Assembly: GCA_963676565.1 (NCBI GenBank)
Contig: OY781089.1
Span: forward strand, 2,976,001-3,040,000
DNA length: 64,000 bases
Origin: Halarcobacter sp.
Lineage (GTDB): Bacteria > Campylobacterota > Campylobacteria > Campylobacterales > Arcobacteraceae
Reading direction: 5' to 3'
In this document: one piece after another, positions 21,309 to 44,652 of the stretch
How positions within the stretch are numbered: position 1 is the stretch's first letter
Layout of the letters: the number at the start of each line of letters is the position of its first letter
Notes under the pieces: generated by a model
The model's input: the letters and a program-made list of their open reading frames with translations, nothing else
Databases searched by the model: none
What the model was told of the DNA's origin: nothing
Position numbers and translations under genes: made by a program

Positions 21309-21767
21309 ATGCAAGAACTAAAAAAAGAGATACTAAAATCAATAGTACCAAGAGCAGTATTATTTCCTATGAATGAAAAAGCAAAGGCATCTATTGCAAA
21401 TGAAAAGCTTATCTCTATCACAAGATTCCCTTATAAAATAGGAAGAGAATCAAGAATTAGTAAAAACGAAAGAGGTTTCTTTGTAAAGCTTAGACTTTTT
21501 GATGAAAACACTACACCTAACAATGACATATATCTTATAGACAATGACGAACTTCTACAAATATCAAAAGAGCATTTAGAAATATCAATAGAAAACAATA
21601 GTTTCTTTGTGATAGATAGAGGAAGTATGAATGGTACAACTATCAATAATGAAACTATCGGTGGAAACAGAAAAATCACAAAAAAAGAGATCAAAGATGG
21701 AGATAGAATCAAAATTGGTTCAAAAGAATCATCTTATGAGTTTCAATTTTTAATTTTAGAAATCTAA
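21309..21767 (+). CDS. FHA-domain protein
   Basis: FHA signature residues IGR, ISKEH and GSMNGT, plus GDRIKIG. Confidence 0.9.
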   Translation: MQELKKEILKSIVPRAVLFPMNEKAKASIANEKLISITRFPYKIGRESRISKNERGFFVKLRLFDENTTPNNDIYLIDNDELLQISKEHLEISIENNSFFVIDRGSMNGTTINNETIGGNRKITKKEIKDGDRIKIGSKESSYEFQFLILEI

Positions 21768-24082: not shown

Positions 24083-24093
24083 AAAGGTTAAAA

Positions 24094-26624: not shown

Positions 26625-26631
26625 GATAATA

Positions 26632-27789: not shown

Positions 27790-28862
27790 ACATACTAATC
27801 ACTGCACCTTCATTAGATACTAAAAAAAATGTAAGTGGTATAGCTTCTGTAGTAAATAATATATTTGAAACTAGTGACTTAAACTATATTCATTTTGAAG
27901 TAGGGAAACAAGATAAAGAGAAACGAAGTATGAAATGGATACTTAAACAATTCATATTACCATTGAACCTTTTTAAAGTCTTCTTATTAAATAAAATTGA
28001 TATTTTTCATCTAAATGCTCCATTAAATGAAATGGGAGTTTTTAGAGACTTTGTATTGCTATTAGTCGCAAAACTTTTCAGAAAAAAAATATTGCTTCAT
28101 TTTCATGGAGGTAAATTTTTAATAACTCCACCTAAAAATAAATTATTTTATAACTTTTTAAAGTTTTATTTTAAAAGAGCTGATATCATAATTACATTAA
28201 GTAAATATGAACAGGATTTAACTATACAACAATATGGAATAAATTCAAATAAGGTAACTTTTTTAGAAAACTGCGTGGTTCCTTTGGACAATAATAATAA
28301 CAAAACTCAAAAAGATAAAGTAAGAGTAATTTTTTTAGGACGAATCGTTGATTCAAAAGGTATACTGCAAATAATAGACGCAATGAAAATACTTTTTTCA
28401 AAAAGAGAAGATTTTGATTTTTATCTTTACGGTACTGGACCTTTAGAAGATACAATAATTAAAGAACTTTCAAGTTTTAAGCATAATTTTAAATATTGTG
28501 GAATTGTATCTGGAGAAGAAAAAGATAAAGCTCTTCAAGATGCAGATATATTTTTGTTGCCATCACTTTATGGAGAAGGGCTCCCTATAGCATTACTTGA
28601 AGCTATGAATTTCAATACTATACCAATTGTAACGGATGATGGTTCTATGTCTGAAGTTATAGAAAATAATATTTCTGGATTTATAGTGGAAAAGGGTAAT
28701 GTAAATAATCTTTTAAAAAGTATAGAGTTATCTATTGAATTAATTAAAAATAATGATTTTAAAGTAAGGCAAAATGCTAAAATTAAAATAAATAAGAGAT
28801 TTAATTGTTTTAATTATTCGAAGAATCTTAAAAAAATTTATTTGGATTTAATTAATGTTTAA
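27786..28862 (+). CDS. GT4 glycosyltransferase
   Basis: FLGRIVDSKG, ADIFLLPSLYGEGLPIALLEAM. Confidence 0.92.
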   Translation: MNILITAPSLDTKKNVSGIASVVNNIFETSDLNYIHFEVGKQDKEKRSMKWILKQFILPLNLFKVFLLNKIDIFHLNAPLNEMGVFRDFVLLLVAKLFRKKILLHFHGGKFLITPPKNKLFYNFLKFYFKRADIIITLSKYEQDLTIQQYGINSNKVTFLENCVVPLDNNNNKTQKDKVRVIFLGRIVDSKGILQIIDAMKILFSKREDFDFYLYGTGPLEDTIIKELSSFKHNFKYCGIVSGEEKDKALQDADIFLLPSLYGEGLPIALLEAMNFNTIPIVTDDGSMSEVIENNISGFIVEKGNVNNLLKSIELSIELIKNNDFKVRQNAKIKINKRFNCFNYSKNLKKIYLDLINV

Positions 28863-30048
28863 TATTTTAAAACATTTTATCTTTTTTACACTTTTTTTTA
28901 TACTTTTTTTTATTGAGACAAAGTACATAGGTGGAGTTAGAATTGCTATTTTATGGAAAGTAGTCTTACTAGGTATAATAATAGTTTATATCGTACTTAA
29001 CAGTAAAGAAAAAATTAAATCCTTTATAGTATTTGGCTATTTATATAGTTTTAAAAATATTATTAGCTACTCTTCTCTTGACTATATTATTTCTACTGTA
29101 GCGGAAGTCTTAAAAAGTTTATATATTCCATTATTTGCACATTTTTTTATACTTTTAAATAAATTAAAGAATTTTGATGTTTATAAATTTTTGCTAGTTT
29201 TAAGTATATATATTATTATTAGTTGTGTTCCATTTTTAGTTGGCATTATAGAATCACCGAACGAAGGTTATGATATGTCTAGATTTGGTCTAAAAGGGTT
29301 TGGTTTTGTTGGAATCTTTGAAAATGCCCATTATGCATCAAATACATTAGCTTTTTGTATTACAATTTTAATTTATCAAATTCAAACTGTTAAACTAAGT
29401 TCAATATTAAAAGTATTTTATATATTGCTTATAATCGTAGCATTAATAGCACTAGTAAAAACATATGCACGTCTTGGATACGCTATGTTATTTGTTTCAG
29501 CATGTTATTTATTATTAGCTAACAAAAGTTTTAAGTTTTATTTAAAGTTAATCATACCAGTTTCAATATTAATTGTAAGTTTCATAGTAGTGTATAATCA
29601 ATCAAAACTATTACAAATGAGAATTAGTGGTGAAAACAAATATTCTAAAGCAAGTTTAGGATCAGGTAGAGGTGACTTTGCGATTCATGCATTGGATAAT
29701 TGGTATAGTGAAGACTTAGATACTTTTTTTGTAGGAATGGGGAAAGAATATGCTATGGATCAGATGGAAAAAGATGTAGGTCTTAGAATATATGCACATA
29801 ATGGATTTATAGATGTACTTCAAATTAATGGCGTTATTGGCGCAGCAATTTTTTTACTTTTTTTTATATATTTAATTAAGTATATAAAGATAAATAAGCA
29901 TCATCCATATTATCAACTATCTTTTTCTATATTTCTTGGTTATGTTATTTCAATGCTTGTTCAAGGAGAAAGATTTTTTTTATCAGATTTAATACTAGCA
30001 GCAAGTATTGCTTTACTAAGTATTGAAACAAAAAAGAAAGTGAAGTAA
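28855..30048 (+). CDS. Wzy polymerase / O-antigen ligase-family membrane protein
   Basis: Many TM segments with GIFENAH, SGR and AHNGFIDVLQINGVIG. Confidence 0.82.
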   Translation: MFNILKHFIFFTLFFILFFIETKYIGGVRIAILWKVVLLGIIIVYIVLNSKEKIKSFIVFGYLYSFKNIISYSSLDYIISTVAEVLKSLYIPLFAHFFILLNKLKNFDVYKFLLVLSIYIIISCVPFLVGIIESPNEGYDMSRFGLKGFGFVGIFENAHYASNTLAFCITILIYQIQTVKLSSILKVFYILLIIVALIALVKTYARLGYAMLFVSACYLLLANKSFKFYLKLIIPVSILIVSFIVVYNQSKLLQMRISGENKYSKASLGSGRGDFAIHALDNWYSEDLDTFFVGMGKEYAMDQMEKDVGLRIYAHNGFIDVLQINGVIGAAIFLLFFIYLIKYIKINKHHPYYQLSFSIFLGYVISMLVQGERFFLSDLILAASIALLSIETKKKVK

Positions 30049-30049
30049 A

Positions 30050-30811
30050 ATGAAAAAATTAAAAGTAATAAAGTCACAAATCTCTATTGGTTCTTACGAT
30101 AACTTTATAAGCAACATAAATACATTATCAAAAGATAAAACCTCATCATATATTTGTATATCAAATGTACATATGACTATAGAAGCTTATCTTGATAAAA
30201 ATTTTGAAGATATCGTAAACAATGCAGATATAGCTACTCCAGATGGTATGCCTTTAGCAAAGGCTATCAAGTTTATTTATGGAATAAATCAAGATAGAGT
30301 TGCAGGTATGGACTTAATAGAAGATTTATTTAAAGAGTGTGAAAAGAAAGATAAAAAAATCTTTGTTTATGGTGGTGCACAACCTACTTTAGAGAAGATG
30401 GAAGAAAAAGTAAATAAAGAATATCCAAACCTTAAGATAAAATCTTATTCTCCACCTTTTAGAGCATTAAGTCAAGATGAAAAAGAAGCAGATATTTCTA
30501 TGATAAATGACTTCAATCCAGACTTTGTATTTGTAGCTTTAGGATGCCCTAAACAAGAGAAATGGATGAGTGAACATAAAAATAAAATCAACTCATGTAT
30601 GATAGGACTTGGTGGAGCTATTGAAGTTTATGCAGGGGTTAAAGATAGAGCACCAAAGTGGATGCAAGACTATTCATTAGAGTGGCTATATAGATTGATT
30701 CAAGATCCAAAAAGACTCTGGAAAAGATACTTTTTGACGAATAGCTTATTTATATTTTTGTTTATTAAACAATACTTAACATACAAGTTTTCAAGAAAGG
30801 ATATAAAATGA
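30050..30811 (+). CDS. WecG/TagA/CpsF-family (GT26) glycosyltransferase
   Basis: PDGMP, RVAGMDL, VALGCPKQE, RAPKWMQ..LEWLYRL..PKRLWKRY. Confidence 0.93.
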   Translation: MKKLKVIKSQISIGSYDNFISNINTLSKDKTSSYICISNVHMTIEAYLDKNFEDIVNNADIATPDGMPLAKAIKFIYGINQDRVAGMDLIEDLFKECEKKDKKIFVYGGAQPTLEKMEEKVNKEYPNLKIKSYSPPFRALSQDEKEADISMINDFNPDFVFVALGCPKQEKWMSEHKNKINSCMIGLGGAIEVYAGVKDRAPKWMQDYSLEWLYRLIQDPKRLWKRYFLTNSLFIFLFIKQYLTYKFSRKDIK

Positions 30812-32178
30812 TAGAAAATAATACATCTGAATATCACAAAAAAAGACATCCAAAACTTAGAGAATTTATATCAGAAGTTATAATCTTCATAACTGATATA
30901 TTTGTAATATTTTTTACTCTTTTTTTCAGTTTTATAGTATGTAGATATTTTCAAGGAGAAGATATAGTTTTAAATGATATATTTATATCATGTCTAAAAA
31001 TGTATCCAACATATATCATCATAACATTTTTGTTTTTTTATGAAAGAATATATCTAAATAGATTTGACTTTTGGCACGAGACAAGGAAGATTATCAAGTC
31101 GTTGTTATTGTCCTTTTTTGCAGTTATCACACTAGGAGTAATAATAAATCAGTCACAAAACTATCCAGTAGAGATAATAGCATGTTCTTTTGTTTTTATG
31201 ATGGTTTTTATGCCACTTTCTAAGTTTTTTTTAAAACCATTTTTGTTTAATATAGGTTTTTGGAAAAAAGGGGTTAAGCTTTTAAGTAGTGATGCTCTTT
31301 TCAAAGATGAAATTTTTGGAAACAGATACTTAGGATATATCAAATCAAAAAGAAAAGAAGCTGATATTGTATTTATTGATTCGCATAAAAAAGATCCTGA
31401 AAGACTAAAAATAATATTAGAACAAGAGATTCAATCAAAAGAAAAAGTTATGTTTGTACCAATATTCAATAACTATCAATTTACTAACTCTGATATATAT
31501 GAGCTTACAAATACAAGAACAAATTTAGTAGTTTTAGAAAACAAACTAAAAAGTAAATACAGAATGTTTATAAATAGATCATACAATCTAGTTCTTGCAA
31601 TACTTTTAGCACCATTTCTTATGCCTATAGTTGGAATCATAGCCTTAGCCATAAACCAAGACTCAAAGGGACCAATACTATTCAAACAAAAAAGGCTAGG
31701 AAGAAATGGTAGTATTTTTATGTGCTATAAATTTAGAACCATGTATGAGCAAGAGGAGCAAGAAAGACTTCTAAAAGACTATCTAGAAGAAAACCCACAT
31801 GAGATTGAAAACTATGAGATATATTGTAAATATGAAAATGACCCAAGAGTTACAAAGGTTGGGAACTTTTTAAGAAAAACATCTTTAGATGAACTTGCGC
31901 AGATTTTTAATGTCTTTAAAGGAGAGATGAGCTTTGTAGGACCAAGGCCATATTTAGTTACAGAAAAAGAAAAGATGGGTGAAGCAAATGTTAATACAAT
32001 ACTAAAAACAAATCCAGGTATAACTGGACTTTGGCAAGTTAGTGGAAGAAATGAACTTACATTTGATGAGAGAGTTCAACTAGAAAAATGGTATGTTCAA
32101 AACTGGTCTCTATGGAAAGATTTTGTTATACTTCTAAAAACTGCAGGTGTAGTTTTAAATAAAGTTGGGGCAAGATAG
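30808..32178 (+). CDS. Undecaprenyl-phosphate priming sugar transferase (WbaP/WcaJ family)
   Basis: N-terminal TMs; KFRTM, DPRVTKVG, SLDELAQ, MSFVGPRP, PGITGLWQVSGR. Confidence 0.94.
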   Translation: MIENNTSEYHKKRHPKLREFISEVIIFITDIFVIFFTLFFSFIVCRYFQGEDIVLNDIFISCLKMYPTYIIITFLFFYERIYLNRFDFWHETRKIIKSLLLSFFAVITLGVIINQSQNYPVEIIACSFVFMMVFMPLSKFFLKPFLFNIGFWKKGVKLLSSDALFKDEIFGNRYLGYIKSKRKEADIVFIDSHKKDPERLKIILEQEIQSKEKVMFVPIFNNYQFTNSDIYELTNTRTNLVVLENKLKSKYRMFINRSYNLVLAILLAPFLMPIVGIIALAINQDSKGPILFKQKRLGRNGSIFMCYKFRTMYEQEEQERLLKDYLEENPHEIENYEIYCKYENDPRVTKVGNFLRKTSLDELAQIFNVFKGEMSFVGPRPYLVTEKEKMGEANVNTILKTNPGITGLWQVSGRNELTFDERVQLEKWYVQNWSLWKDFVILLKTAGVVLNKVGAR

Positions 32179-32181: not shown

Positions 32182-32547
32182 TTGAAAAGTTTATTTAGTA
32201 ACCTAAAAGAAAAAAATACTTTTATTTTCTTTTTGGTGATATTTGGAATCTTTGCAATTGCATTTGATCCAACTCATAGTGTAGACAAAGTTTTTCTTAC
32301 TAACTTTGACAAGATAAAACATATACTTGCATTTGTAGTGATTAGTTACTTTTTTGTAGAAAGTTCTATAAAACTAAAAGTGATATTAAAAATACTGATT
32401 TTAGTTTTGATAGCTTTTTTTATAGAGTATGTTCAATTTATGATTGGAAGAGAGGCTTCAGTTTTAGACTTCTTTGCTAGTATTAGTGGAGTTGGAATAT
32501 TTTTCCTAGTTAGATTTTTTGTTTTAAAAAATAAATTTACTTTTTAA
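32182..32547 (+). CDS. VanZ-like membrane protein
   Basis: DKIKHILAF..IEYVQ..GREASVLD. TTG start. Confidence 0.8.
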   Translation: MKSLFSNLKEKNTFIFFLVIFGIFAIAFDPTHSVDKVFLTNFDKIKHILAFVVISYFFVESSIKLKVILKILILVLIAFFIEYVQFMIGREASVLDFFASISGVGIFFLVRFFVLKNKFTF

Positions 32548-33679
32548 ATTTATTTTTTAAAACGATATTAAAAGGTCTTATAAGATAATACAAAAAATTT
32601 AAACTTTTTGGAAGTTTTATTACTTTGTAATCATACTCTGTAGGATGAAGCATTGATTTTAGATATTTCAATCTATATGAAGTGTTTTTCAACATAAACC
32701 ATTGAACAGATGAAATCTCTTTTGTATGGATTTTATCTGTATTTTCAAACTCTTTTATAAATCGATAATATATCTTATCTGTATTTTCAATTATTTTTTT
32801 ATCACGAGTGTTTAAATTGATATTTAAATTTATAGAAAATACTTTTTCACAGAGTAATATACTAGATAATACAACTCTATCTGCATCTATTTTTTTTGCA
32901 AGAGACAATACTTTTTCAAAATCTAAAATCTTTTTTACTATTATCAAGTTTATATCTACTAACCATTCTAGTCTTTCCCACATATGTTTATATCCATGAA
33001 TACAAAGATAGATAAAGTGAATTTCATTTGATAAGATATTTACTTCAGAATTTTTTAGTTTATATTTTTGACTAACAAAATAGTTTAATTTTTCTAAGTC
33101 CATAAAAAACTCAGCACTAGACAATGTCCAGTGTGCTTCTATGAGTATATTATTTATTTTATTCAAAAAACTTCTGTCATGTACTATATCAACTAATTTT
33201 TCTTTTTGATACTCTTCTAAATCAAAAACTTCTTCGTAATTTTCTTCAGCTAAAAGTTTTCCTAATCTATTGATATCCTTTAAGCTTACCAAAATATCTA
33301 AATCAACATATTGCCTTAGTGTTATATCATCATATGCCATTTGTGATAGAACAGGCCCTTTGAAAGCTATAGCATTTATACCATTTTCTTCCAAAAGTTT
33401 TGTAACTTTTATAAGTTCAGATGTCATAAGCATGTTTTGCTTAGCTATGTCCATATTGATTAATTTTAATCTTCTAAAAATATCTTCAGGTATAAACTCT
33501 TTAAAATTTTTGATGCTATTGTAGACTAATGGAAAAACTCCATGTTTATAAGAAAGTTCTATAAAAATATCCCAATCCTTTATTAAAAGAATCTTTTCTT
33601 TTAGTAAGTTCTGCTTTGGAATTATTTTACATGATTCTATTATTAATTCTACGTCATTTGATAATTTTTTTAGTTTTAT
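32537..33679 (-). CDS. Nucleotidyltransferase (NTP_transf_5-like); probable non-canonical ATA start
   Basis: FKGPVL..RQYVDLDILV..IEAHW..HGYKHMWERLEWLVD. The frame stays open upstream of ATG 33454 and encodes DW..HGVFPLVY. Confidence 0.82.
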   Translation of the reverse strand: MKLKKLSNDVELIIESCKIIPKQNLLKEKILLIKDWDIFIELSYKHGVFPLVYNSIKNFKEFIPEDIFRRLKLINMDIAKQNMLMTSELIKVTKLLEENGINAIAFKGPVLSQMAYDDITLRQYVDLDILVSLKDINRLGKLLAEENYEEVFDLEEYQKEKLVDIVHDRSFLNKINNILIEAHWTLSSAEFFMDLEKLNYFVSQKYKLKNSEVNILSNEIHFIYLCIHGYKHMWERLEWLVDINLIIVKKILDFEKVLSLAKKIDADRVVLSSILLCEKVFSINLNINLNTRDKKIIENTDKIYYRFIKEFENTDKIHTKEISSVQWFMLKNTSYRLKYLKSMLHPTEYDYKVIKLPKSLNFLYYLIRPFNIVLKNKFKK

Positions 33680-33856
33680 TTTTTTGCCTTTGAAAAATCT
33701 AATTAGATACTATCAAATTATATTAAAAAATAAAATAAAAACTCAAAAACTTACTAATAAAAAATATACAGATTTATTACCTTATTGTAATACTTTTAAG
33801 ATATACTTCCATCTTATTTAAGTATAATACGCAAAATTATTAAAAAGGTAAACTAA

Positions 33857-35002
33857 ATGGCAGAACAGAAAGTAGCACTAATAACAGGAATCACAGGACA
33901 AGATGGTTCATATTTAGCTGAATTTCTTCTAAAAAAAGGTTATATAGTACATGGTATCAAAAGAAGATCTTCTATGTTCAACACAGATAGAATTGATCAC
34001 TTATATGAAGATCCACATGTAGAAAATAGAAACTTAGTATTACACTATGGTGATATGACTGACTCTATGAATATAACAAGAATCATCCAAGAGACTCAAC
34101 CTGATGAAATCTATAACTTAGCTGCGATGTCTCATGTTGCTGTATCTTTTGAAACTCCAGAATATGTAGCAAATGCAGATGGTACAGGAACACTAAGAAT
34201 CTTAGAAGCAGTTAGATTCTTAGGACTTGAAAAGAAAACAAAAATCTATCAAGCAAGTACATCTGAACTATATGGTAAAGTTCAAGAAACACCTCAAAGT
34301 GAAACAACTCCTTTTTATCCAAGATCACCTTATGCAGTTGCAAAGATGTATGCATATTGGATTACTGTAAACTATAGAGAAGCATATGATATGTTTGCTT
34401 GTAATGGTATTTTATTTAACCATGAGTCTCCTGTTAGAGGTGAAACATTTGTAACTAGAAAGATTACAAGAGCAGCTTCAAAGATTGCTTTAGGATTACA
34501 AGAAAAACTATATCTTGGAAACCTTGATGCAAAAAGAGACTGGGGACATGCAAAAGACTATGTTAGAATGATGTGGATGATTTTACAAGCAGAACAACCA
34601 GAAGATTGGGTTATAGCAACTGGACAAACAACTACTGTAAGAGACTTTGTGAAATTTGCCTTTGAATATGCAGGTATAAACCTAAGATTTGAAAATGAAG
34701 GTGTAGATGAAGTTGGTATAATAGATAACTTTGATGAAGCAAAAGCAAAAGAATCAGGAATCGATTTATCTCACTTAAGTATCAATCAAACAGTTGTAGG
34801 TGTAGATCCAAGATACTTTAGACCAACAGAAGTTGACTTACTTCTTGGAGATCCAAGTAAAGCAGAAAAGAAACTTGGATGGAATAGAGAATATAACTTA
34901 CAAGAGTTAGTTGATGATATGATGAAATCAGACCTTAAACTTATGACAAAAGACACTTATCTAAAAGATGGTGGTTATAAGATTATGAATTATTTTGAAT
35001 AG
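33857..35002 (+). CDS. gmd: GDP-mannose 4,6-dehydratase
   Basis: [41 protein letters not shown]. Confidence 0.98.
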
Positions 35003-35014
35003 TAGTAATTAGTT

Positions 35015-35023
35015 TGCTATAAT
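35015..35023 (+). promoter_or_regulatory. Extended -10 promoter for the toxin-antitoxin pair
   Basis: TGCTATAAT, followed by AGGAG and ATG 35042. Confidence 0.65.
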
Positions 35024-35041
35024 TGTTATCAGGAGTTAAAA

Positions 35042-35236
35042 ATGAGTTTAGATGAAATAAAAAAATTAGATGTAAAAGATAGAATCATTTTAATGAATGA
35101 AATCTGGGCTACTTTAGAAGAAGAAGATAGTAATATTGAATCTCCATCTTGGCACAAAGAAGTTTTAGAAGAAAGACTTCAAAAACTTGATAACAATAAA
35201 GCAGAATTTATCTCACTTGAAGACTTAAAAGCTTAA
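35042..35236 (+). CDS. Addiction-module antitoxin component
   Basis: 64 aa; L..DRI.LM..IW..L...SPSWHKEVLEERL. Overlaps the toxin start. Confidence 0.82.
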   Translation: MSLDEIKKLDVKDRIILMNEIWATLEEEDSNIESPSWHKEVLEERLQKLDNNKAEFISLEDLKA

Positions 35237-35559
35237 TGAATATAAAAAACATAATAGCTTTAAAAGAAGTTTCAAATGATTTGAAATTAGGCGAAGAATT
35301 TTATGAAAAACAAAATCATGGATTGGGTTCATACTTTAAAGATAGCATAATATCTGACATAGAGTCTTTATGGCTTTATGGAGGAATTCATCAAAAAGTA
35401 TTTGGTTTGTATCGATTGCTTTCTAAAAGATTTCCGTATGGAATTTATTATGTCATCAAAGATGAAACAGTTATAGTAGTAGCTATTCTTGATTTAAGAC
35501 AAAACCCTAAAAAAATTTCTTCATATTTAAATAATAGAAATACTAAAAAAGAATATTGA
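35236..35559 (+). CDS. RelE/ParE-family toxin
   Basis: [30 protein letters not shown]. Confidence 0.82.
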
Positions 35560-35560
35560 A

Positions 35561-36610
35561 ATGAACAAAGATAGTAAAATATATATAGCAGGACACAGAG
35601 GATTAGTTGGTTCTGCTATTGTTAAAAACTTAGAATCAAAGGGTTATACAAATCTTGTATATAAAACTCATAAAGAACTAGACCTAACTTCACAAGTAGA
35701 AGTAGCTAAGTTTTTTGAAGATGAAAAACCAGAATATGTAATACTAGCAGCTGCTAAAGTTGGTGGTATAGTTGCAAACAATACATATAGAGGTGAATTT
35801 ATATATGAGAATCTTGCTATTCAAAACAATGTAATCCACCAATCATATGTAAATGGTGTAAAAAAATTATTGTTTTTAGGTAGTACTTGTATCTATCCAA
35901 AAGAAGCACCACAACCTATGCCAGAAAATTGCCTTTTAACTTCACCCTTAGAATATACAAATGAGCCATATGCAATAGCTAAAATTGCAGGTATAAAAAT
36001 GTGTGAATCATATAACTTACAATATGCTACAAACTTTATATCTGTAATGCCAACAAATCTATATGGACCAAATGACAACTTTGATTTAGAAAAATCTCAT
36101 GTGTTGCCAGCACTTATTAGAAAAATTCATTGTGCTAAGCTTTTATATGAAGGGAGAGAAGACGAAGTTGCAAAAGAGTTAGGTATTGAAAATATTGATG
36201 ATGCAAAAGAGTATTTAGAAGGTTTTGGAGTAGATGCCTCTTCAGTTGAAATTTGGGGAACAGGAAAACCAAGACGAGAGTTTTTATATAGTGAAGATAT
36301 GGCTGATGCTTGTGTATTTTTATTAGAAAATAGAGACTTTAGTGATACCTATGAAAAAGACTCAAAAGAAGTAAGAAATACCCATATCAATATTGGAACT
36401 GGTGTAGATATATCAATCAAAGAACTGGCAGAGCTTATACAAAAAATTATTGGTTTTGAAGGTGAATTAAAATTTAATATCAATAAACCAGATGGTACAA
36501 TGGTTAAATTAACTGATCCGTCTAAATTACACAGTTTAGGATGGAAACACAAAGTTGAACTTGAAGATGGTATTAAAACTATGTATGAGTGGTATTTAAA
36601 TAATAAATAA
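35561..36610 (+). CDS. fcl: GDP-L-fucose synthase
   Basis: [40 protein letters not shown]. Confidence 0.96.
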
Positions 36611-36611
36611 A

Positions 36612-37073
36612 ATGTTTTTAGATAAAGAAACTTTTAGTACAATTATTGCAAATGCACCACTTATCTCTATTGATTTAATAATCAAAAATAGCGAAGATAA
36701 AGTTCTACTAGGTAAAAGAATAAACAAACCAGCAAAAAACAGTTGGTTTGTTCCTGGTGGAAGAGTTTTCAAAGATGAAAAAATAGATGATGCTTTTAAA
36801 AGAATCACACAAAATGAGATTGGTGTTGAATACAATATCAAAAGTGCTTCTTTTAAAGGTATATATCAACACTTTTATGATGACAATGTTTTTGGTGATG
36901 ATTTTTCTACCCATTATATTGTGTTAAGTTTTGAACTTAGAATTACAAATACACCTATGACAAATAATCAACATGAAAATTATAGATGGTTTGAAGAAGA
37001 TGAACTAATGAAAAGTGATGATGTATACTTTTTTGTAAAAGACTATTTTGATAAAGATAAGGGGATTAGATGA
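36612..37073 (+). CDS. gmm: GDP-mannose mannosyl hydrolase (Nudix)
   Basis: PLISIDLI, WFVPGGRV.KDE, FSTHYIVL, QH..YRW. Confidence 0.92.
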   Translation: MFLDKETFSTIIANAPLISIDLIIKNSEDKVLLGKRINKPAKNSWFVPGGRVFKDEKIDDAFKRITQNEIGVEYNIKSASFKGIYQHFYDDNVFGDDFSTHYIVLSFELRITNTPMTNNQHENYRWFEEDELMKSDDVYFFVKDYFDKDKGIR

Positions 37074-38440
37074 CTAATATAATACTATGTGGAGGTAGTG
37101 GAACAAGATTATGGCCAATAAGTAGAACACTTATGCCAAAACAATTTGTAAAATTGTTTGATGAAAAATCTTTATTTCAATTAACTGTTCAAAGAAATTC
37201 AAAAGTTTGTAATAGTCAATTTATAGTTTCAAATGCTGAACAATATTTTCTTTCTGTTGATCAATTAGAAGAATTAAAAAAAGAGAATAATAAATACCTT
37301 CTTGAACCTGTTGGAAGAAATACTGCCCCTGCTATTGCTTTGGCTTGTATGGAGTTAGATTCTGAGGAGATAGTATTAGTAACACCAAGTGATCATCTAA
37401 TTAAAGATGAAGAAGAGTATTCAAAAGTTTTAGAAAAAGCAAAAGAATTAGCACTTGAAGATAATCTAGTAACTTTTGGTATTACTCCAACATTTGCTGA
37501 AACTGGATTTGGATACATAGAAAGTGAAAATGAATATGATGTAAAAGCTTTCCATGAAAAACCTGACTTTGAAACAGCAACTTCGTATTTAAAAGCTGGA
37601 AACTATTATTGGAATAGTGGTATGTTTATGTTTAAAGCTGGAGTATTTTTAGAGGAATTAAAAAAATATTCTCCTGAGATATTTGATACTAGTAAAGATG
37701 CTTTAACAAACTCTTCTAAAGATGATATTACAAGAATAAAATATGATGATATGATGAAAATCCCTGAAGATAGTATCGATTATGCAGTTATGGAAAAATC
37801 TTCAAAAGTAAAAGTTGTTCCATCTAATATTAATTGGTCAGATGTAGGAAGTTTTGATTCTTTATATGAAGAACTTCCAAAAGATGAAAATGGAAATACC
37901 TTAAATAAAAATCATGTGTCAATAGATAGTAAAAACAATCTAATCTATGGAAAACAAAGAAAAATTGCAACTGTTGATATTGAAGATTGTATTATAGTTG
38001 ATACTGGAGATGCTTTACTTATATCTAAAAAGGGAAGCTCACAAAAGGTTAAAAAAGTAGTTGCAGAAGTTAGAAAAACAACAGAACTACACAATATTCA
38101 CTTAACTGGCTATAGACCATGGGGTTCATATACAGTTTTAGAAGATACTCCTGGATATAAAATCAAAAGAATTGATGTAAAACCAGGGAAAAGACTAAGC
38201 TTACAAAAACATTTCCATAGAAATGAACACTGGATTGTCGTAAGTGGAACTGCTACAGTTACAGTTGGTGAAGAAACAAAACTAGTAAGACCAAATGAAT
38301 CTATTTATATAAAAATGGGTGAATTACATAGACTAGCAAATGAAGGGAAAATTCCTGTAGTACTTATAGAAGCACAAGTTGGCGAGTATACAGGTGAAGA
38401 TGATATCGTAAGAATTGATGATGATTTTAAAAGGGATTAA
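37070..38440 (+). CDS. manC: Mannose-1-phosphate guanylyltransferase/isomerase
   Basis: GGSGTRLWPISR..PKQF, EPVGRNTAPA, WNSGMF, and a C-terminal cupin (RPWG..HRNEHW). Confidence 0.97.
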   Translation: MTNIILCGGSGTRLWPISRTLMPKQFVKLFDEKSLFQLTVQRNSKVCNSQFIVSNAEQYFLSVDQLEELKKENNKYLLEPVGRNTAPAIALACMELDSEEIVLVTPSDHLIKDEEEYSKVLEKAKELALEDNLVTFGITPTFAETGFGYIESENEYDVKAFHEKPDFETATSYLKAGNYYWNSGMFMFKAGVFLEELKKYSPEIFDTSKDALTNSSKDDITRIKYDDMMKIPEDSIDYAVMEKSSKVKVVPSNINWSDVGSFDSLYEELPKDENGNTLNKNHVSIDSKNNLIYGKQRKIATVDIEDCIIVDTGDALLISKKGSSQKVKKVVAEVRKTTELHNIHLTGYRPWGSYTVLEDTPGYKIKRIDVKPGKRLSLQKHFHRNEHWIVVSGTATVTVGEETKLVRPNESIYIKMGELHRLANEGKIPVVLIEAQVGEYTGEDDIVRIDDDFKRD

Positions 38441-39856
38441 ATGAAAACTATAAAAGAAGTTATTACTCAAAGTGATGTTAAATTTGGGACTAGTGGAGCA
38501 AGAGGTTTAGTTACTGAATTCACAACTGAAGTATGTACAGCTTTTACTATCTCTTTTTTAGATGCCATGAAAAAAAGCTTTGAGTTTAAAAAAATTGCAG
38601 TTGCAATGGATAATCGTCCAAGCAGTCCTGAAATAAGTTCTATAATTTGTGGGGCTATAAAAGCCTATGGTTATGAAGTAGATTTTTATGGAGTGATTCC
38701 TACTCCAGCATTAGCCCTACAAGCTATGGCAGATAAAATACCATCTATTATGATAACAGGAAGTCATATCCCCTTTGATAGAAATGGTATCAAGTTTTAT
38801 AGACCAGATGGTGAGATATCAAAAGATGATGAAATAGCTATTTTAAATAATACCAACCAAATAGTTGATGTCAATAGTTATTTACCAAAAGTAGAAGACA
38901 CTGCAGCAACAAATTATATTAACAGATACGCAAACTATTTTGGGGAAAACTGCTTAGATGGTCTTAAAATTGGTATTTATGAACACTCAAGTGCAGGTAG
39001 AAATTTGTATTCAAAACTTTTTACAAATTTAGGTGCAGAGGTCATTTCTCTTGGAAGATCTGATGAGTTTATACCAATAGACACAGAAGCAGTTTCAGAT
39101 GAAGATAAACAAAGAGGAAAAGACTGGTCAAAAGAATATAACTTTGATACTATTTTTTCTACAGATGGAGATGGAGATAGACCATTAATTGCTGATGAAA
39201 ATGGTGACTGGTTAAGAGGTGATATTGTTGGTTTAATGACTTCCAATATCCTTGGGGTTAAAGCTTTAGCTGTGCCTGTTAGTTGTAATACAGCTATTGA
39301 AAAAAGTGGCTTTTTTGAAAAAGTAAAAAGAACAAAAATTGGATCACCTTATGTTATAGAAGCCTTTGAAGAGTTAAATACTTACAAATCAATTGCAGGG
39401 TTTGAAGCAAATGGTGGTTTTCTATTAGGTTCAGCACTTGAACAAAATGGAACTATTTTAGATGCATTACCAACTAGGGATGCCCTGCTTCCATTTATAG
39501 TATTAGCTAGTTTTACAGTAAAAGAAAAGACAAGACTTTCTAAACTTATTGAAAATTTACCAAAACGTTTTACATCAAGTGATAGAATTCAAAATTTTCC
39601 AAGAGAAAAGAGTATTAAACTTATAAATAAAGGTGTAGAAAATCCAAATAACCTATTAGAAATGTTAGGTTTTGAAAATCTAAAAATAGTAGACATAAAT
39701 CAAATTGATGGATTGAGACTGACATTTGATAATGATGTAATCATACATCTAAGACCTTCTGGTAATGCACCAGAGTTACGTTGTTATGTAGAAACTAATA
39801 ATCAAGATACTTCAGATAAGCTAGTAAAACAAACCTTAACTTCAATTTCACAATAA
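38441..39856 (+). CDS. manB: Phosphomannomutase
   Basis: FGTSGARG, TGSHIP, DGDGDR, GFEANGG, LRPSGNAPELR. Confidence 0.95.
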   Translation: MKTIKEVITQSDVKFGTSGARGLVTEFTTEVCTAFTISFLDAMKKSFEFKKIAVAMDNRPSSPEISSIICGAIKAYGYEVDFYGVIPTPALALQAMADKIPSIMITGSHIPFDRNGIKFYRPDGEISKDDEIAILNNTNQIVDVNSYLPKVEDTAATNYINRYANYFGENCLDGLKIGIYEHSSAGRNLYSKLFTNLGAEVISLGRSDEFIPIDTEAVSDEDKQRGKDWSKEYNFDTIFSTDGDGDRPLIADENGDWLRGDIVGLMTSNILGVKALAVPVSCNTAIEKSGFFEKVKRTKIGSPYVIEAFEELNTYKSIAGFEANGGFLLGSALEQNGTILDALPTRDALLPFIVLASFTVKEKTRLSKLIENLPKRFTSSDRIQNFPREKSIKLINKGVENPNNLLEMLGFENLKIVDINQIDGLRLTFDNDVIIHLRPSGNAPELRCYVETNNQDTSDKLVKQTLTSISQ

Positions 39857-39859
39857 AAA

Positions 39860-39880
39860 AGAACCCATATTTTGGGTTCT
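39860..39880. terminator. Hairpin terminator between manB and the PqqD gene
   Basis: AGAACCCA-TATTT-TGGGTTCT, with an A-run on the left that serves as the U-tract on the minus strand. Confidence 0.7.
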
Positions 39881-39886
39881 AAAGTG

Positions 39887-40159
39887 TTATGAGATAGTAA
39901 TCAAACCTTTGTTTGCTACTTCTTGAATAAAATTTAAAATATCATTTTCAACTTGTTTTTCATCCACCTCATAATTTGAGATTATCTCTTCTTTTACTTT
40001 ATTTAAATCTTTTTTTTCTTCTAAAGTTTCCCAAATAAAAGTTCCAATCTCATTTATAGAAAAATACTCATTGGTATTACTATCAAGTAAAATTGTTTCA
40101 TCATCTACTTTTTGTAAAAAAAGTGTATCTGGTATATTTATTTTTGTATCTAGTGTCAT
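39887..40159 (-). CDS. Stand-alone PqqD-family RiPP recognition element
   Basis: 90 aa; VDDETILLD..YFSINEIGTFIW..YEVDEKQVENDILNFI..KGLI is the typical lasso B1/PqqD pattern. Confidence 0.92.
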   Translation of the reverse strand: MTLDTKINIPDTLFLQKVDDETILLDSNTNEYFSINEIGTFIWETLEEKKDLNKVKEEIISNYEVDEKQVENDILNFIQEVANKGLITIS

Positions 40160-40162
40160 ATT

Positions 40163-41020
40163 TTATATTACCTTTTTATTTTTTATAAATTTTACAATAG
40201 CTTGATAAACCTCTTCAAGTCTATTTAAATCCCAAGGAATAGTTATATCATATATATCTACTTTATTTGCTATATTTGTCAAAGCTTTAAATCTTTGTTT
40301 TTTATGAATAGGCAAATCTATTTCTGTGGAATATCTTATAATCTTAAATTTATCAATTCCTAAAGTTTGTGAAACTTTTATTTCACATAGCGGATCAGAT
40401 TTTATTAAATTTAATATACAATTAATTGGTTTAGATTCTTCTGCAAAATTCTCTACAAATAATCCTAAATCTTCCATTTTACGATAAGGTCTATGATATG
40501 GATATGAAGGTACAGAAAAAATCATATTATCTTTTTCAAAAGTTGCTACTTTATCATCAGATATCATAGTATGACCTTTTTTTATAAAGAAATCTGTTAA
40601 GGTAGATTTTCCACCAAATGAATTTGCTACAAACAAAACTGAGGTATCTTCAATCTCCACAGCCCCGGCATGTAAGAAATAATACTTGTTTTCAAAGGTA
40701 AGTAGTATGGGGAAATAGGTATGTTTCAACCAATAGTCTACTAATTTATCTGTAGTTCCATCCGCTTTTGAGTATGTTATTAGATTAGAGTTGATTTTAC
40801 TTGAAAAAGTAACAACATCTCTAACTGTGAAACTTATTATTTGATTAGATTCTATTCTAGAGAAAGGTTTTTCACTTTGAATAAAAACTTCTCTAAGCTG
40901 ATTATTGTGAAGTTCTATCTTATAATTGAGTTTATTAGTAGAAGTTTGTTCTTCTACTAATGTGTATCTATTAGGACTCTGTTTTTTATTTATTTCTAAA
41001 TGGTATCCAAATAAATACAT
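40163..41020 (-). CDS. HPr-kinase-related P-loop kinase
   Basis: LHAGAVEI..ANSFGGKST..ISDD. Confidence 0.85.
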   Translation of the reverse strand: MYLFGYHLEINKKQSPNRYTLVEEQTSTNKLNYKIELHNNQLREVFIQSEKPFSRIESNQIISFTVRDVVTFSSKINSNLITYSKADGTTDKLVDYWLKHTYFPILLTFENKYYFLHAGAVEIEDTSVLFVANSFGGKSTLTDFFIKKGHTMISDDKVATFEKDNMIFSVPSYPYHRPYRKMEDLGLFVENFAEESKPINCILNLIKSDPLCEIKVSQTLGIDKFKIIRYSTEIDLPIHKKQRFKALTNIANKVDIYDITIPWDLNRLEEVYQAIVKFIKNKKVI

Positions 41021-41042
41021 TAATACTTTTTACTATATGTTA

Positions 41043-41264
41043 CTAGTTAAATGAACTTCTTCTTATTCCACCTCTATCATCATTTGATGGATCAGTACCA
41101 GGTCCAGTTACTGAAGTAGAAGTATCTCTATTTACAGTATTACTTGCTGCTGCTGATGTAGGGATTGTCATTGAACCTAAAGCAACTATTGCAGGTGCTG
41201 CATATGCTGCTTTTTTTAGGAAACTTCTTCTGCTGTTTTTATTTTCTTCTACAATTTTATCCAT
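41043..41264 (-). CDS. Small peptide with twin-arginine and YxxP motifs; candidate RiPP precursor
   Basis: 73 aa with GGAG RBS; SRRSFLKK-AAYAAPAI, AAA site and Ser/Thr/Asp/Gly-rich tail. First gene ahead of the kinase and RRE. Confidence 0.8.
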   Translation of the reverse strand: MDKIVEENKNSRRSFLKKAAYAAPAIVALGSMTIPTSAAASNTVNRDTSTSVTGPGTDPSNDDRGGIRRSSFN

Positions 41265-41294
41265 TTTATATTCTCCAAAATTTTTTATAATGGC

Positions 41295-41303
41295 ATTATA
41301 ACA
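41295..41303 (-). promoter_or_regulatory. Extended -10 promoter for the peptide-kinase-RRE operon
   Basis: Minus-strand TGTTATAAT about 30 nt upstream of ATG 41264. Confidence 0.6.
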
Positions 41304-41476
41304 TAAAAACTTTCTAATAATATTAGAAGTTACTTAAAAAATATACAGCTACGTTATAATGTTATTTTTGTAACTATTTTGTAACTTTAAAATTTTAGCT
41401 ATTTTTTAGACAGTTTTATTTGATATTTAATAACTCATTGTGTTATGATAACAAAAAAATTTATAAAAGGATGTTT

Positions 41477-42277
41477 ATGGGGTTAAAGATAAAATCTATT
41501 TTTACTTTCTCTATTCTAATTGCTTTATTCAGTGGTTGTAGTCTAAAAGATTATAAACTTTTCCAAGAAGGTAATCTAGATATTGAAGAAACTACTGTTG
41601 TTGAAAAAGAAGAATATTATCAAGAAATGGCATTTGAGAATATAATCGCTCCAAATGATAGAGTTGATGTTACAGTTTATATTCAAGCTGGTCAAGGTAG
41701 TCAACAAATGACTTCGATTCTTACTAGTAGAGATGTAAACAATAGTAATACAATTCAAGAAAACATTGGATTACTTGTTACTAGAAAAGGAAGTGTTAGA
41801 CTTCCATTACTTGGAAGTGTAAATATTGCAGGGCTAACGCAAGATGAAGCTTCTAATTATCTAATTAAAGAATACAAAAAATTTATCAGAAACCCATATG
41901 TAATCGTTGAAATCAAAAACCAAAGAGTTATCGTAATAGGTGAAGTAAAATCGCCAGGTATCGTTCCAGTTACAAATGGTACAATGAATGTAATTGAAGC
42001 TATTGCAAGGACTGGTGACTTAACAGATATGGCATCTAGAAACAATATCAAAGTTATTAGAGGTGATTTAAGAAATCCTAAAGTTAGAACTATTAACCTT
42101 ACAAGAATGGATGAATTATCTGTTTCAAGTTTATACTTAAAACCAAACGATATATTATATGTACAACCTAGAAATCTTAAAGGTTATAATAGAGCATTTA
42201 ATGATATCAACCCATTTTGGAATATGTTATCTAGTATCCTAGATCCACTAAACCAAAGAAAAACTCTTATAGAATAG
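41477..42277 (+). CDS. wza: Wza-like polysaccharide export lipoprotein
   Basis: Lipobox LFSGC, Poly_export motif GSVRLPLLG..AGLT, SLBB motif VIGEVKSPG. Start placed at ATG 41477, after AAGGA and TGTTATGAT. Confidence 0.9.
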   Translation: MGLKIKSIFTFSILIALFSGCSLKDYKLFQEGNLDIEETTVVEKEEYYQEMAFENIIAPNDRVDVTVYIQAGQGSQQMTSILTSRDVNNSNTIQENIGLLVTRKGSVRLPLLGSVNIAGLTQDEASNYLIKEYKKFIRNPYVIVEIKNQRVIVIGEVKSPGIVPVTNGTMNVIEAIARTGDLTDMASRNNIKVIRGDLRNPKVRTINLTRMDELSVSSLYLKPNDILYVQPRNLKGYNRAFNDINPFWNMLSSILDPLNQRKTLIE

Positions 42278-42294
42278 TATAAGGGTTATCATTA

Positions 42295-44652
42295 ATGGAA
42301 CAAAATAAATATATACAACATACAAATGATGAAATAGATTTAAAACAAGTATTTAAAACCATTCTTAAATACAAGTTTTTTATCTTTTTTACGATTTTAA
42401 TATTTACTATAGGTTCAGCTGTATTTGCTTATGTTAAGCCAAATATCTATTCTTCTTCTGCAACTATTGAAGTAAAAGAGGAAGAAAGAGGTTGGAACAC
42501 AAGTTCAGCACTAAAAGAAGCATTTAGTGGAACTGGAGTTAATATAGAAAATCAAATTGAAGTTTTTAAATCAAAGTTTTTAGCTGATAGAGCAGCTAGT
42601 TACTTAAATCTTGGGACAAGATATTTTACAAAAAATAACTATAGAACATATGAGTTCTATCAAAATTCTCCTTTTGTTGCTACAAAAGAGTTTATAGATG
42701 ATGAATTCTACAATAAAACTTTTTATATACAACCTTTATCAAAAGATACTTTTAAACTAATTATTAAACCTAGTAACAAATGGTCAAAGTCTGGGATTTT
42801 AGATCTATTAGGTGTTAGAAAATTTGAGGACATAGATCTTTTTAAGTATGAAAAAATCCATAAATATAATGAAGAGATAAAAACACAATGGTTTAATATA
42901 AAAATTCAAAAGATTAGTGAACTAGAAGAAAGTGAATATTCTTTTTATTTTGTTCATGAGTCTTCATTTGTAGACTACTACTATAATTTATCAATTGAGC
43001 AAGTTTCTGAATTTGCGAGTGTATTAAGACTTTCTATTTTAGATACTGTTTCAACTAGAGCAAAAGATCTTTTAAATGCTATGTTAAAGGCATATAGAGA
43101 TCAAGAAAGAGAAAGAAAAAATGAAACAGCAAACTTATCTTTAGACTTTATTGATTCTCAACTTGAAGAGATAAATAAAAGACTTAAGGCTTCAGAGGGA
43201 AAACTTGAAGAGTATAAAGAGACTAACGAAGTAATTGATTTATCACAAAAAGCAAAAATGACTTCAGAAAAATTAACTGATTATGAAAGTAAACTTCAAG
43301 AGATATCAATAGAACAAAATATCTTAAAAAATTTACAACAATATATCAATAAAAATCACAATTTATCTGGTCTAGCAGTTGGATCAATAAGCTTTGCTGA
43401 TCCTTCATTATCAAATATGGTTAAAAACTTAACCGAGTTATCAAATCAAAGAGATAACTTACTTATTGATTATACAGAGTTACACCCTGATATTGTAAAA
43501 CTTAGTCAATCAATTGCAACACTAAGAAGAAATATTAAAACTGTTTTAAGTAATAACTTAAATCAAATAGCACAAAGAAAAGCTTCTTTAGAATCTTTGA
43601 TTAGACAATATACAAAATCTTTAGAAACACTTCCTCAACAAGAAAAAGAGCTAACAAGACTTACAAGATATTTTTCTGTAAATGAAAAAGTATATTCATA
43701 TTTACTTGAAAAAAGAGCTGAAACAGCTATCTTAAAATCATCTACAATCTCTAATTCAAGAGTATTGGATGAAGCATTAAATTACCCTATTCCTGTTAAA
43801 CCAAAAAGAATGTTAATAGTTTTAGTTGGTATGATATTAGGTGGAATTGTTGGTATTGCTTACGCATTTTTAAGAGAGTTTTTAAATGATACAGTTAAAA
43901 ATACAGAGGAAATTGAAAGATATAGTTCAATTCCAATTTATGGTGTTGTTCCTCTTAATAAAAACAAAAAAACAAAAAATATCTTCCTTGAATCATTTAG
44001 GTCAATTAGAACAAACTTACAGTTCTTGCCACAAACAGAATCAAGTAGAGTTATTACAGTAACTTCTTCTGTATCAGGAGAAGGGAAAACAACTGTTGTT
44101 GCAAAAATTGCTGAAATAATAGGTCAAACAAATAAAAAGGTTGTTGTTTTAGATATAGATATGAGAAAAGCTAGTGTTCATAAAGAGTTTGATGTAGATA
44201 ATGTTATAGGATTAAGTAATTATCTAACTGGACAAAATACACTAAAAGATGTAATCTCTAAAACAGAGTCTGAAAATGTTGATTTAATTACTACAGGGCC
44301 TCTTCCTCCAAATCCTTCAGAATTGATTTTATTAGATAACATGAAAACCTTAATTGAAGATTTAAAAGAGGAATATGATTATATTATTATAGATACGCCA
44401 CCTGTTGGTCTTGTAACAGATGCACTTATTCTTATGAACTATGCAGATATTTCATTTGTATTAGTTAGAGCTGATTACACGAGAAAAGAGTTTATCAAAA
44501 ACCTTGATAGACTAGCGCGTGAACACTCACACAATCATATTGGTATGATTTTAAATGGTGTTGAAATTGGTGAAAAATATGGATACGGTTATGGTGTAAG
44601 TTATGGATATGGTTACGGAAATGACAAATATTATAAAGATAGACCTAGTTAA
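42295..44652 (+). CDS. wzc: Wzc polysaccharide copolymerase / tyrosine autokinase
   Basis: DEIDL, two TMs, GEGKTT, DIDMRK, IIDTPP, C-terminal Tyr cluster YGYGYGVSYGYGYG. Confidence 0.96.
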   Translation: MEQNKYIQHTNDEIDLKQVFKTILKYKFFIFFTILIFTIGSAVFAYVKPNIYSSSATIEVKEEERGWNTSSALKEAFSGTGVNIENQIEVFKSKFLADRAASYLNLGTRYFTKNNYRTYEFYQNSPFVATKEFIDDEFYNKTFYIQPLSKDTFKLIIKPSNKWSKSGILDLLGVRKFEDIDLFKYEKIHKYNEEIKTQWFNIKIQKISELEESEYSFYFVHESSFVDYYYNLSIEQVSEFASVLRLSILDTVSTRAKDLLNAMLKAYRDQERERKNETANLSLDFIDSQLEEINKRLKASEGKLEEYKETNEVIDLSQKAKMTSEKLTDYESKLQEISIEQNILKNLQQYINKNHNLSGLAVGSISFADPSLSNMVKNLTELSNQRDNLLIDYTELHPDIVKLSQSIATLRRNIKTVLSNNLNQIAQRKASLESLIRQYTKSLETLPQQEKELTRLTRYFSVNEKVYSYLLEKRAETAILKSSTISNSRVLDEALNYPIPVKPKRMLIVLVGMILGGIVGIAYAFLREFLNDTVKNTEEIERYSSIPIYGVVPLNKNKKTKNIFLESFRSIRTNLQFLPQTESSRVITVTSSVSGEGKTTVVAKIAEIIGQTNKKVVVLDIDMRKASVHKEFDVDNVIGLSNYLTGQNTLKDVISKTESENVDLITTGPLPPNPSELILLDNMKTLIEDLKEEYDYIIIDTPPVGLVTDALILMNYADISFVLVRADYTRKEFIKNLDRLAREHSHNHIGMILNGVEIGEKYGYGYGVSYGYGYGNDKYYKDRPS

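Follow-up and report, generated by a model that had tools for sequence, protein, structure and literature searches.

A predicted Tat-leader peptide cassette with kinase, RRE and nucleotidyltransferase genes at a wza-wzc locus of Halarcobacter

The closest described relatives of the system treated here are the linear polyphosphorylated peptides (LPPs; lppA-K-B-S-D-N, Paenibacillus alginolyticus; Popov et al. 2026, PMC13381572). In brief, their clusters lack a cyclase, lie in capsule loci of Bacillota, to which LPPs are described as confined, and encode an RRE (recognition element of RiPPs, peptides made on the ribosome and modified after translation), an HprK-like kinase and an NTP transferase. 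Polyphosphorylation of Ser3 has been shown, a SipW-like peptidase, LppS, and an MsbA-like exporter, LppD, are part of the set, and the nucleotidyltransferase gave no detectable product. Here we describe a cassette of four genes, encoding a precursor peptide, a kinase, an RRE and a nucleotidyltransferase, in a 64-kb stretch of a Halarcobacter genome (contig OY781089.1), below called the window, whose coordinates are used throughout. The source genome is complete (3.34 Mb, 99.97% completeness) and belongs to the Arcobacteraceae, below called the family.

The cassette resembles the LPP clusters in having no cyclase, a discrete YxxP-reading RRE, a kinase like HprK, an uncharacterised NTP transferase and a capsule-locus setting. 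Also shared are a conserved leader followed by a variable core, a Ser just past the leader, removal of the leader by a signal-peptidase-type enzyme (predicted here) and the ability to adjoin a true lasso cluster, as in genome G339. Three features that define LPPs are absent: the dedicated SipW-like peptidase LppS, the MsbA-like exporter LppD and the leader consensus YxxPxVLxHQxIxFETxxS, in place of which the cassette has a twin-arginine translocation (Tat) signal and an AxA site. The host differs as well, being a Gram-negative member of the Campylobacterota. The original prediction had treated a cyclase-less RRE/HprK/nucleotidyltransferase peptide system in capsule loci as new, and in this it was anticipated, as such systems were described and tested in 2026 as LPPs (PMC13381572). 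A term search of the main text and six supplements of that paper gave no mention of Tat, twin-arginine or the genera concerned here. Judged from its sequence, the cassette appears to be a Gram-negative variant with a Tat leader; the concept of the cyclase-less cassette is already published, and what sets the variant apart is its proposed two-code leader and its minimal gene set. No Tat-exported, RRE-dependent RiPP was found in the literature searched, most subscription papers lying outside its coverage, and term searches of the available text of RRE-Finder (PMC7470986) and of PMC12710340 found no discussion of the cassette. Among capsule-locus systems with RRE, HprK and NTP_transf_5 genes the cassette is the minimal form, with four genes, and it seems to rely on the host for export. 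With a named substrate and a named residue, the reason for such genes in capsule loci becomes directly testable in a Gram-negative host.

Phosphorylated lasso peptides, namely Bsf of Bradymonas (PMC10368454), paeninodin (PadeK) and pseudomycoidin (PsmK and PsmN; PMC6993621, PMC8498205), share with the cassette an RRE, the kinase motif with its spacing, and a PsmN-like DxD enzyme. BsfK is stimulated by its RRE and targets Ser3, near the leader (PMC10368454); the phosphorylated Ser lies at P+15 in LppA and at P+16 in BsfA (PMC13381572; PMC10368454). The cassette differs from these systems in having no B2 peptidase, cyclase, ABC exporter, ring-forming core or C-terminal Ser of the PadeK/PsmK type. 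The paeninodin/pseudomycoidin model drawn on in the original prediction fails on the last point, since none of the 25 peptides of the window's clade ends in Ser (1/59 homologues; 11/149 of the representatives described below). The HPr-rel-A systems (NCBIfam TIGR04352/TIGR04353) likewise place a PqqD-family gene next to that of an uncharacterised HprK-related kinase, but the cassette scores below the cut-offs of both models and forms a separate subfamily. Bufferins (PMC12452194) resemble it in using a general export signal as RiPP leader, with a partner that has an RRE-type domain proposed to mask the signal until modification is done; they differ in using Sec instead of Tat, in MNIO chemistry on Cys, in having no YxxP and in a metal-binding function.

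Our preferred reading, cautiously favoured on what the genes and their relatives reveal, is that the cassette is a lasso-derived tailoring module that would make a linear phospho(glyco)peptide, with the host supplying export and leader removal. If export holds, the free variability of the core would offer a natural route to modify and then secrete arbitrary peptides.

The precursor gene behaves as a coding sequence, with 939/544/1833 pairwise differences at the three codon positions over 20 leader codons in 22 homologues. Its leader matches the Tat signal model TIGR01409 (18.2 bits, cut-off 16.7), a property that the original prediction had overlooked. The consensus is SRRxFLKKAAYxAPxVxALG...P..AxA. 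R12, R13, K17 and P24 are invariant in 59/59 homologues, Y21 is kept in at least 90%, and at least 13 uncharged residues follow the arginine pair in 56 of the 59. The hydropathy of the h-region (1.74) lies within the range (1.15-2.18) of the 17 other Tat-type leaders of the same genome, and Y-x-x-P-x-[IVL] occurs in one of these 18 leaders. TatC and a LepB motif are encoded in the source genome; the features expected of a Tat substrate, S-R-R-x-F-L-K, an uncharged h-region, an AxA site and a genomic TatC, are all present.

A profile of the leader matched 637 library clusters at 50% identity (E up to 0.001), and 149 anchored representatives were drawn from the best 150 of these matches. The Tyr of YxxP is present in 148 of the 149, and conservation extends to the columns expected of a signal peptidase I site, with Pro at -6 in 124/149, Ala at -3 in 105/149 and Ala at -1 in 127/149; the lasso Thr is kept in only 35/149. 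All 25 peptides of the window's clade have small residues at P+14 and P+16, and in 21 a Ser occupies P+17 to P+19, where core composition would predict one in 27%. It should be noted that the profile that chose the 149 representatives includes the P+17 to P+19 columns and that kin among them are not independent. Downstream of AxA the cores are hypervariable. Many of the longer ones (P0135, P0150, P0156, P0174, P0182 and others) have an aromatic, amphipathic-looking C-terminal segment that could bind membranes. A query of the ESM Atlas with the peptide returned 30 clusters without names at up to 0.95; its recognition value of 2043 is under the 2300 mark, and we take this as a lead only.

The kinase has a Pfam Hpr_kinase_C match of E 5e-6, under the Pfam cut-off, and a predicted model (pLDDT 92) whose best Foldseek matches are HprK/P structures. 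H117, K138-S139 (in a variant Walker A, A-x-S-F-G-G-K138-S139-T) and D155-D156 are invariant in 49 sequences, and the H/K/S/DD spacing of 21 and 17 residues equals that of BsfK H148/K169/D186 (PMC10368454). The enzyme shares the fold of true HprK without matching its model TIGR00679 (21.3 bits, cut-off 240), and it scores 24.4 bits against TIGR04352 (cut-off 200). No open reading frame matched an HPr motif. A search with a strict Hanks-kinase motif found nothing, which we do not take as absence.

The closest solved structures to the RRE are those of TbiB1, PbaB1, TfuB1 and LppB, which are lasso and LPP RREs, and TIGR04353 gave no match to it at E up to 0.05. Residue D73, invariant in 46 sequences, aligns with the Asp of LppB that binds the leader Tyr (PMC13381572); PbaB1, which prefers Trp, has Gln at this position. 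A discrete RRE together with a [Y/W]xxPx[LVI] leader motif, as used to recognise lasso systems, is found here. A second PqqD of the genome was considered as a partner of the cassette and rejected, because it sits in a pqq operon by reading of its genes.

The nucleotidyltransferase frame has 390 open codons ending at 32537, with no ATG, GTG or TTG in the first 85 and the first ATG at 33454. Homology extends up to an ATA at 33679, preceded 7 nt upstream by AAGG (33687-33690), and this arrangement is conserved in G010, G014 and G030. The start given in the original prediction is therefore retained, and the gene probably starts at this ATA codon. The enzymes of loci L070 and L075 also have no canonical start, and many others use TTG; such starts suggest deliberately low expression. 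D126-x-D128 is intact, matches the DxD required in PsmN (PMC6993621), and is invariant in 18 sequences. A sequence search of the PDB gave no match, and the fold assignment draws on Pfam and PMC6993621. Among PF14907 enzymes, LppN gave no product in B. subtilis, where its deletion changed nothing (PMC13381572), and BsfN was not assayed. PsmN acts on the phosphopeptide product in vivo; its main products are monophospho-hexosides, beside a diphospho+hexose form (m/z 2940) and a dihexose form (PMC6993621).

The original prediction took the system to be non-lasso from the window, and the whole genome agrees. The B2 peptidase model PF13471 has no match in it, and our own profile of 10 B2 proteins from relatives reaches a best E of 0.1; the same Pfam search did find B2 in G339, G017 and G383, our positive controls. 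Lasso cyclases are not known to have the N-terminal Cys. The four PF00733 Asn synthetases of the genome all start with MCG (glutamine-amidotransferase type), none is near the cassette, and one of them is the best genome match to a lasso-type cyclase (E 6.5e-33). Thr(-2) and an Asp or Glu at core position 7-9 occur together in 0/25 peptides of the clade and 1/59 homologues, Thr being at the site in 5/25, and the first Asp of the window peptide would fall at core position 10. The SipW-type peptidase model TIGR02228 has no match in the source genome, no LppS-like peptidase was recognised among the annotated open reading frames of the loci compared, and neither the cassette nor the stretch from wzx to cpsB has an LppD/MsbA-like exporter. 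By reading, the ABC gene at 766-2946 was assigned to a type I secretion set. No open reading frame longer than 150 aa with a CxxxCxxC motif occurs in the window.

The four genes travel together. Close kinase orthologues were found in 5 of 36 other family genomes, and the peptide profile matches 9/151 family genomes and 12/401 genomes of a phylum sample, 3 of the latter being unrelated Tat targets. These three weak matches, in G123, G259 and G303, were dismissed as Tat targets of formate-dehydrogenase regions. All 17 peptide-bearing genomes have an NTP_transf_5 gene (with an internal stop in G331), and one of them, G339, has B2. Among 50 family genomes, the 7 with the nucleotidyltransferase are the same 7 that have the kinase. 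That this enzyme belongs with the other three, as the original prediction assumed, is borne out by its position directly 3' of peptide-kinase-RRE in G013, G030, G452, G406 and metagenome loci, among them L070, L071 and L074; an opposite-strand manC-gmm-fcl-gmd block splits it from the RRE in G000, G003, G010, G014, L075 and L076.

A metagenome set of 80 kinase loci was reduced to 76 by dropping 4 duplicates; many of the contigs are short. The peptide lies within 900 nt of the kinase in 39/76, none of which has B2 or cyclase, and none of the 20 loci with B2 or cyclase has a Tat-leader peptide; these have their own short classical precursors without RRxFLK. The two kinds also separate in a quick kinase tree (n=99; duplicates and kinases below 265 aa left out), where the window enzyme falls in a clade with SH-aLRT 98 in which 23/24 kinases adjoin the peptide, and another group (support 87) takes in 24/27 of the kinases next to B2 or cyclase.

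Several variants were seen among the relatives. In G339 (L052:4577-14565) genes for a LamG protein, a putative lipoprotein, the Tat peptide and the kinase are joined to a full lasso operon (ABC, B2, a second kinase, cyclase and its own 43-aa precursor) with a single RRE, a natural test of one RRE shared by two YxxP leaders. One kinase clade (L107, L114, L129, L141) has 1-3 divergent Tat-leader peptides before kinase-RRE-nucleotidyltransferase and no wza; its peptide cores are Cys/His/Gly-rich with an SSSL motif, beta-oxidation genes adjoin, and a TgpA-type transglutaminase gene lies beside the cassette in L107, L114 and L129. G017, of the same genus as the source, has three distant kinase/RRE/Asn-synthetase loci (L029, L030, L031), one of them with B2, ABC and nucleotidyltransferase genes; two have lasso-type precursors, and there is no Tat peptide.

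Table 1. Position of the cassette and neighbouring features in the 64-kb window.
Feature	Position	Strand	Basis or remark
Precursor peptide gene, 73 aa	41043..41264	minus	leader of about 40 aa, a Tat signal that contains the RRE motif, and hypervariable Ser/Thr-rich core of about 33 aa
HprK-fold kinase, 285 aa	40163..41020	minus	weak Pfam Hpr_kinase_C match and Foldseek fold
Discrete lasso-type RRE (PqqD), 90 aa	39887..40159	minus	Pfam PqqD E 7e-18
NTP_transf_5 (PsmN/LppN/BsfN-like) nucleotidyltransferase-fold enzyme, about 380 aa	32537..33679	minus	Pfam E 4e-53
Extended -10 promoter TGnTATAAT	41295..41303	minus	conserved in 12 loci
Shine-Dalgarno sequence GGAG of peptide gene	41273-41276	minus	
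Intrinsic terminator-like hairpin with T-run, 3' of RRE gene	39860..39880	minus	hairpin scan against shuffles
Twin-arginine motif S-R-R-S-F-L-K (residues 11-17)	41214..41234	minus	TIGR01409 above cut-off
RRE-binding motif Y-x-x-P-x-I (residues 21-26), within Tat h-region	41187..41204	minus	conservation
Predicted site for signal peptidase I, A38-A39-A40, followed by Ser41 (predicted phospho-acceptor)	41142..41153	minus	inferred
gmd-(antitoxin/ParE-like pair)-fcl-gmm-manC-manB block	33857..39856	plus	between RRE and nucleotidyltransferase in one sub-lineage
wza-wzc	41420..44652	plus	divergent from peptide promoter
CpsB/CapC-type tyrosine phosphatase	44663..45415	minus	
Wzx/Wzy-dependent polysaccharide genes: wzx, two GT4, wzy, WecG, WbaP-like	25383..32178	plus	
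Stand-alone FHA protein	21309..21767	plus	candidate phospho-reader

The positions originally given for the four genes all check, and the genes are intact. Coordinates and strands likewise agree with a peptide-kinase-RRE operon divergent from wza-wzc, and with its having a promoter and terminator of its own. Across 12 aligned loci the TGnTATAAT element has 4 invariant columns (G, T, A and the A/T end); a scan with an E. coli-type consensus did not list this promoter. Hairpins followed by a T-run number 2, against 0.4 in shuffles. The wza frame opens with a TTG at 41420; an ATG at 41477 is the more likely start. Gene names in the gmd-manB block were read from translations, and the Pfam scan covered gmm and the antitoxin/ParE-like pair only.

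We observe which genes are present, that their catalytic motifs are intact, that they are conserved and co-occur, and that lasso machinery is absent; each biochemical step that follows is what we infer. In brief, with high confidence the RRE would bind Y21-x-x-P24-x-I26 in the Tat h-region; whether by covering this region it would also act as a gatekeeper that keeps the precursor cytoplasmic seems to us evenly balanced. The HprK-fold kinase, helped by the RRE, likely adds one or more phosphates to the first Ser after the leader, which we would place, with less assurance, at Ser41. The NTP_transf_5 enzyme, probably made at a low level from its ATA start, might then use an NDP-sugar of the locus to attach a sugar or sugar-phosphate to the phospho-Ser, comparable to PsmN, a step towards which we lean slightly. 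Export of the modified peptide by TatABC and cleavage by LepB at AxA, in the roles of the ABC exporter and the B2/LppS peptidase, is quite probable. This host route would account at once for three missing genes, those of peptidase, cyclase and exporter. The product would be a periplasmic or surface peptide, made alongside the Wzx/Wzy polysaccharide and accessory to it.

Several observations count against the tailoring module so proposed. G041 and G218 carry peptide, kinase and nucleotidyltransferase on separate contigs. The polysaccharide locus of G452, a genome without B2, has a Cys-less Asn-synthetase-like gene (L032:15118-16869), which scores 47 as a lasso cyclase against a cut-off of 525. 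A Ser at P+17 to P+19 is missing in 4/25 peptides of the window's clade and in 41/149 representatives, only 24/59 peptides match TIGR01409 at E up to 0.05, and some cores comprise just 9-15 residues or so. No longer protein bearing the leader was found among 8000 scored candidates, which is weak evidence. The Walker A of the kinase (A-x-S-F-G-G-K-S) is non-standard. Concerning the nucleotidyltransferase, to the lack of an LppN product in B. subtilis (PMC13381572) it must be added that there is no in vitro demonstration of PsmN (PMC6993621; PMC8498205).

Among the alternatives, the leader could be an enzyme docking sequence only. The modified peptide would then not go beyond the cytoplasm or inner membrane and would control polysaccharide synthesis as a phospho-signal, with the FHA protein as its possible reader. 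We regard this as unlikely. It draws on the FHA orthologue, which has intact GR/SxxH motifs and occurs in 7/9 cassette-bearing family genomes against 0/31 other family genomes, G004 and G026 included. The gene lies between two UDP-glucose dehydrogenase (ugd) copies in the window and away from the locus in four of the seven (G003, G013, G030, G452), and the G014 copy is broken. The cores are also Thr-rich, some are very short for a Tat cargo, and Wzc and CpsB adjoin. FHA domains favour phosphothreonine. LppK did not accept Thr (PMC13381572), which counts against this alternative, though BsfK did (PMC10368454). Docking alone moreover does not explain why h-region, -6 Pro and AxA site are conserved, and cytoplasmic lasso precursors of the same order, with related RREs and kinases, have no RRxFLK. 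Because the genomes are few and kin, and a search of the 8 peptide-bearing genomes outside the family gave no orthologue, we treat the co-occurrence of FHA gene and cassette as a lead only. In L127, L128 and L235 the FHA gene lies directly 3' of wzc.

The original prediction expected a conserved linkage to polysaccharide loci, and this stands within the family, where the peptide gene is divergent from wza in 9/9 peptide-bearing genomes at wza-wzc. It does not extend to all loci: one kinase clade has no wza, and of the 20 peptide loci whose upstream sequence reaches 1.2 kb or more, 6 have no wza, wzc or cpsB, three of these 6 being covered for some 10 kb to either side. Conversely, a wza orthologue is present in 8/50 family genomes, with the cassette in 6 and without it in G004 and G026. 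Outside the family the nucleotidyltransferase lies beside polysaccharide genes in 7/8 genomes (in two by reading of neighbour translations), and peptide and kinase are often 3' of genes for a putative lipoprotein and for a surface protein of LamG type. The cassette appears to be an accessory of polysaccharide loci, because of the six loci without wza/wzc/cpsB and the two wza genomes without the cassette.

These distributions bear on a second alternative, in which the phosphopeptide, as a protein, takes the place of undecaprenyl phosphate: the nucleotidyltransferase would prime Ser-P with sugar-1-phosphate, the glycosyltransferases of the locus would extend it, and the Tat-exported peptide would be a primer or anchor of the Wzx/Wzy polysaccharide. 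We consider it improbable. The constant place next to wza in the family would suit such a carrier, as would the nucleotidyltransferase beside polysaccharide genes even where peptide and kinase are elsewhere, cores that differ between serotype-like loci, the PsmN-dependent diphospho+hexose and dihexose products (PMC6993621), and LPP and lasso clusters of Bacilli that lie in capsule loci, co-expressed with an exopolysaccharide gene (PMC13381572). The same type of wza-wzc locus in G004 and G026 nevertheless does without the cassette, linkage inside one mobile island is not independent evidence, and the monophospho-hexosides that dominate among PsmN products (PMC6993621), like the loci and the kinase clade without wza, count against such a carrier. 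That the peptide carries or anchors the polysaccharide, as originally suggested, is accordingly not upheld, and anchoring by the cassette peptide is doubtful. The same low standing is given to the fullest version, a Tat-exported glycan carrier with a two-code leader, the RRE as export gatekeeper, a Ser-(P)P-sugar that would mimic undecaprenyl pyrophosphate and prime or anchor the Wzx/Wzy polysaccharide, and an FHA protein that would read the phospho-state. If true, such a carrier would give a function to unexplained lasso-type tailoring genes in capsule loci.

A third alternative, which we find about as hard to credit, keeps phosphorylation by the kinase and export of the peptide by Tat and lets the nucleotidyltransferase merely co-travel, serving the polysaccharide or its nucleotide sugars. 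Sulfurovum-like genomes have this gene in the wza/wzc locus, far from peptide and kinase, and deletion of LppN had no effect in B. subtilis (PMC13381572). Against it, the gene is directly 3' of the RRE in a clade without nearby polysaccharide genes (L107, L114, L118, L129, L141), no copy of it was found in G004 and G026, which have wza but not the kinase, and PsmN works on the phosphopeptide product in vivo (PMC6993621).

Lastly, the cassette could be what is left of a lasso cluster in decay, or a satellite of one, and depend on enzymes from genes elsewhere. This would suit the lasso spacing Y-x-x-P-x-I...G...T, which the window peptide alone fits, and G339, where Tat peptide and kinase precede a full lasso operon and there is one RRE, but this very improbable reading is largely refuted by the lack of B2 and of a Cys-less cyclase in the source genome, by the scarcity of Thr at the site and its pairing with a ring Asp/Glu in none of the 25 peptides, by the lasso operon of G339 having its own precursor, and by invariant catalytic residues and a leader with third-position codon bias.

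Some further features of the window touch the polysaccharide locus itself. An addiction-module antitoxin and ParE-like pair (35042-35559) is inserted between gmd and fcl, as in G014. The two ugd copies (20073-21299 and 21980-23206) that flank the FHA gene encode proteins that are 99% identical, and this doubling is also present in G014. A second MurB-MurA pair (23207-25371) lies inside the polysaccharide operon. Two large repeat proteins flank the locus, one at 45460-49932 (1490 aa, five 441-bp repeats at 99%) and one on the minus strand at 5506-17874 (4122 aa). A similar repeat protein is encoded 3' of cpsB in most relatives, whether the cassette is present or not.

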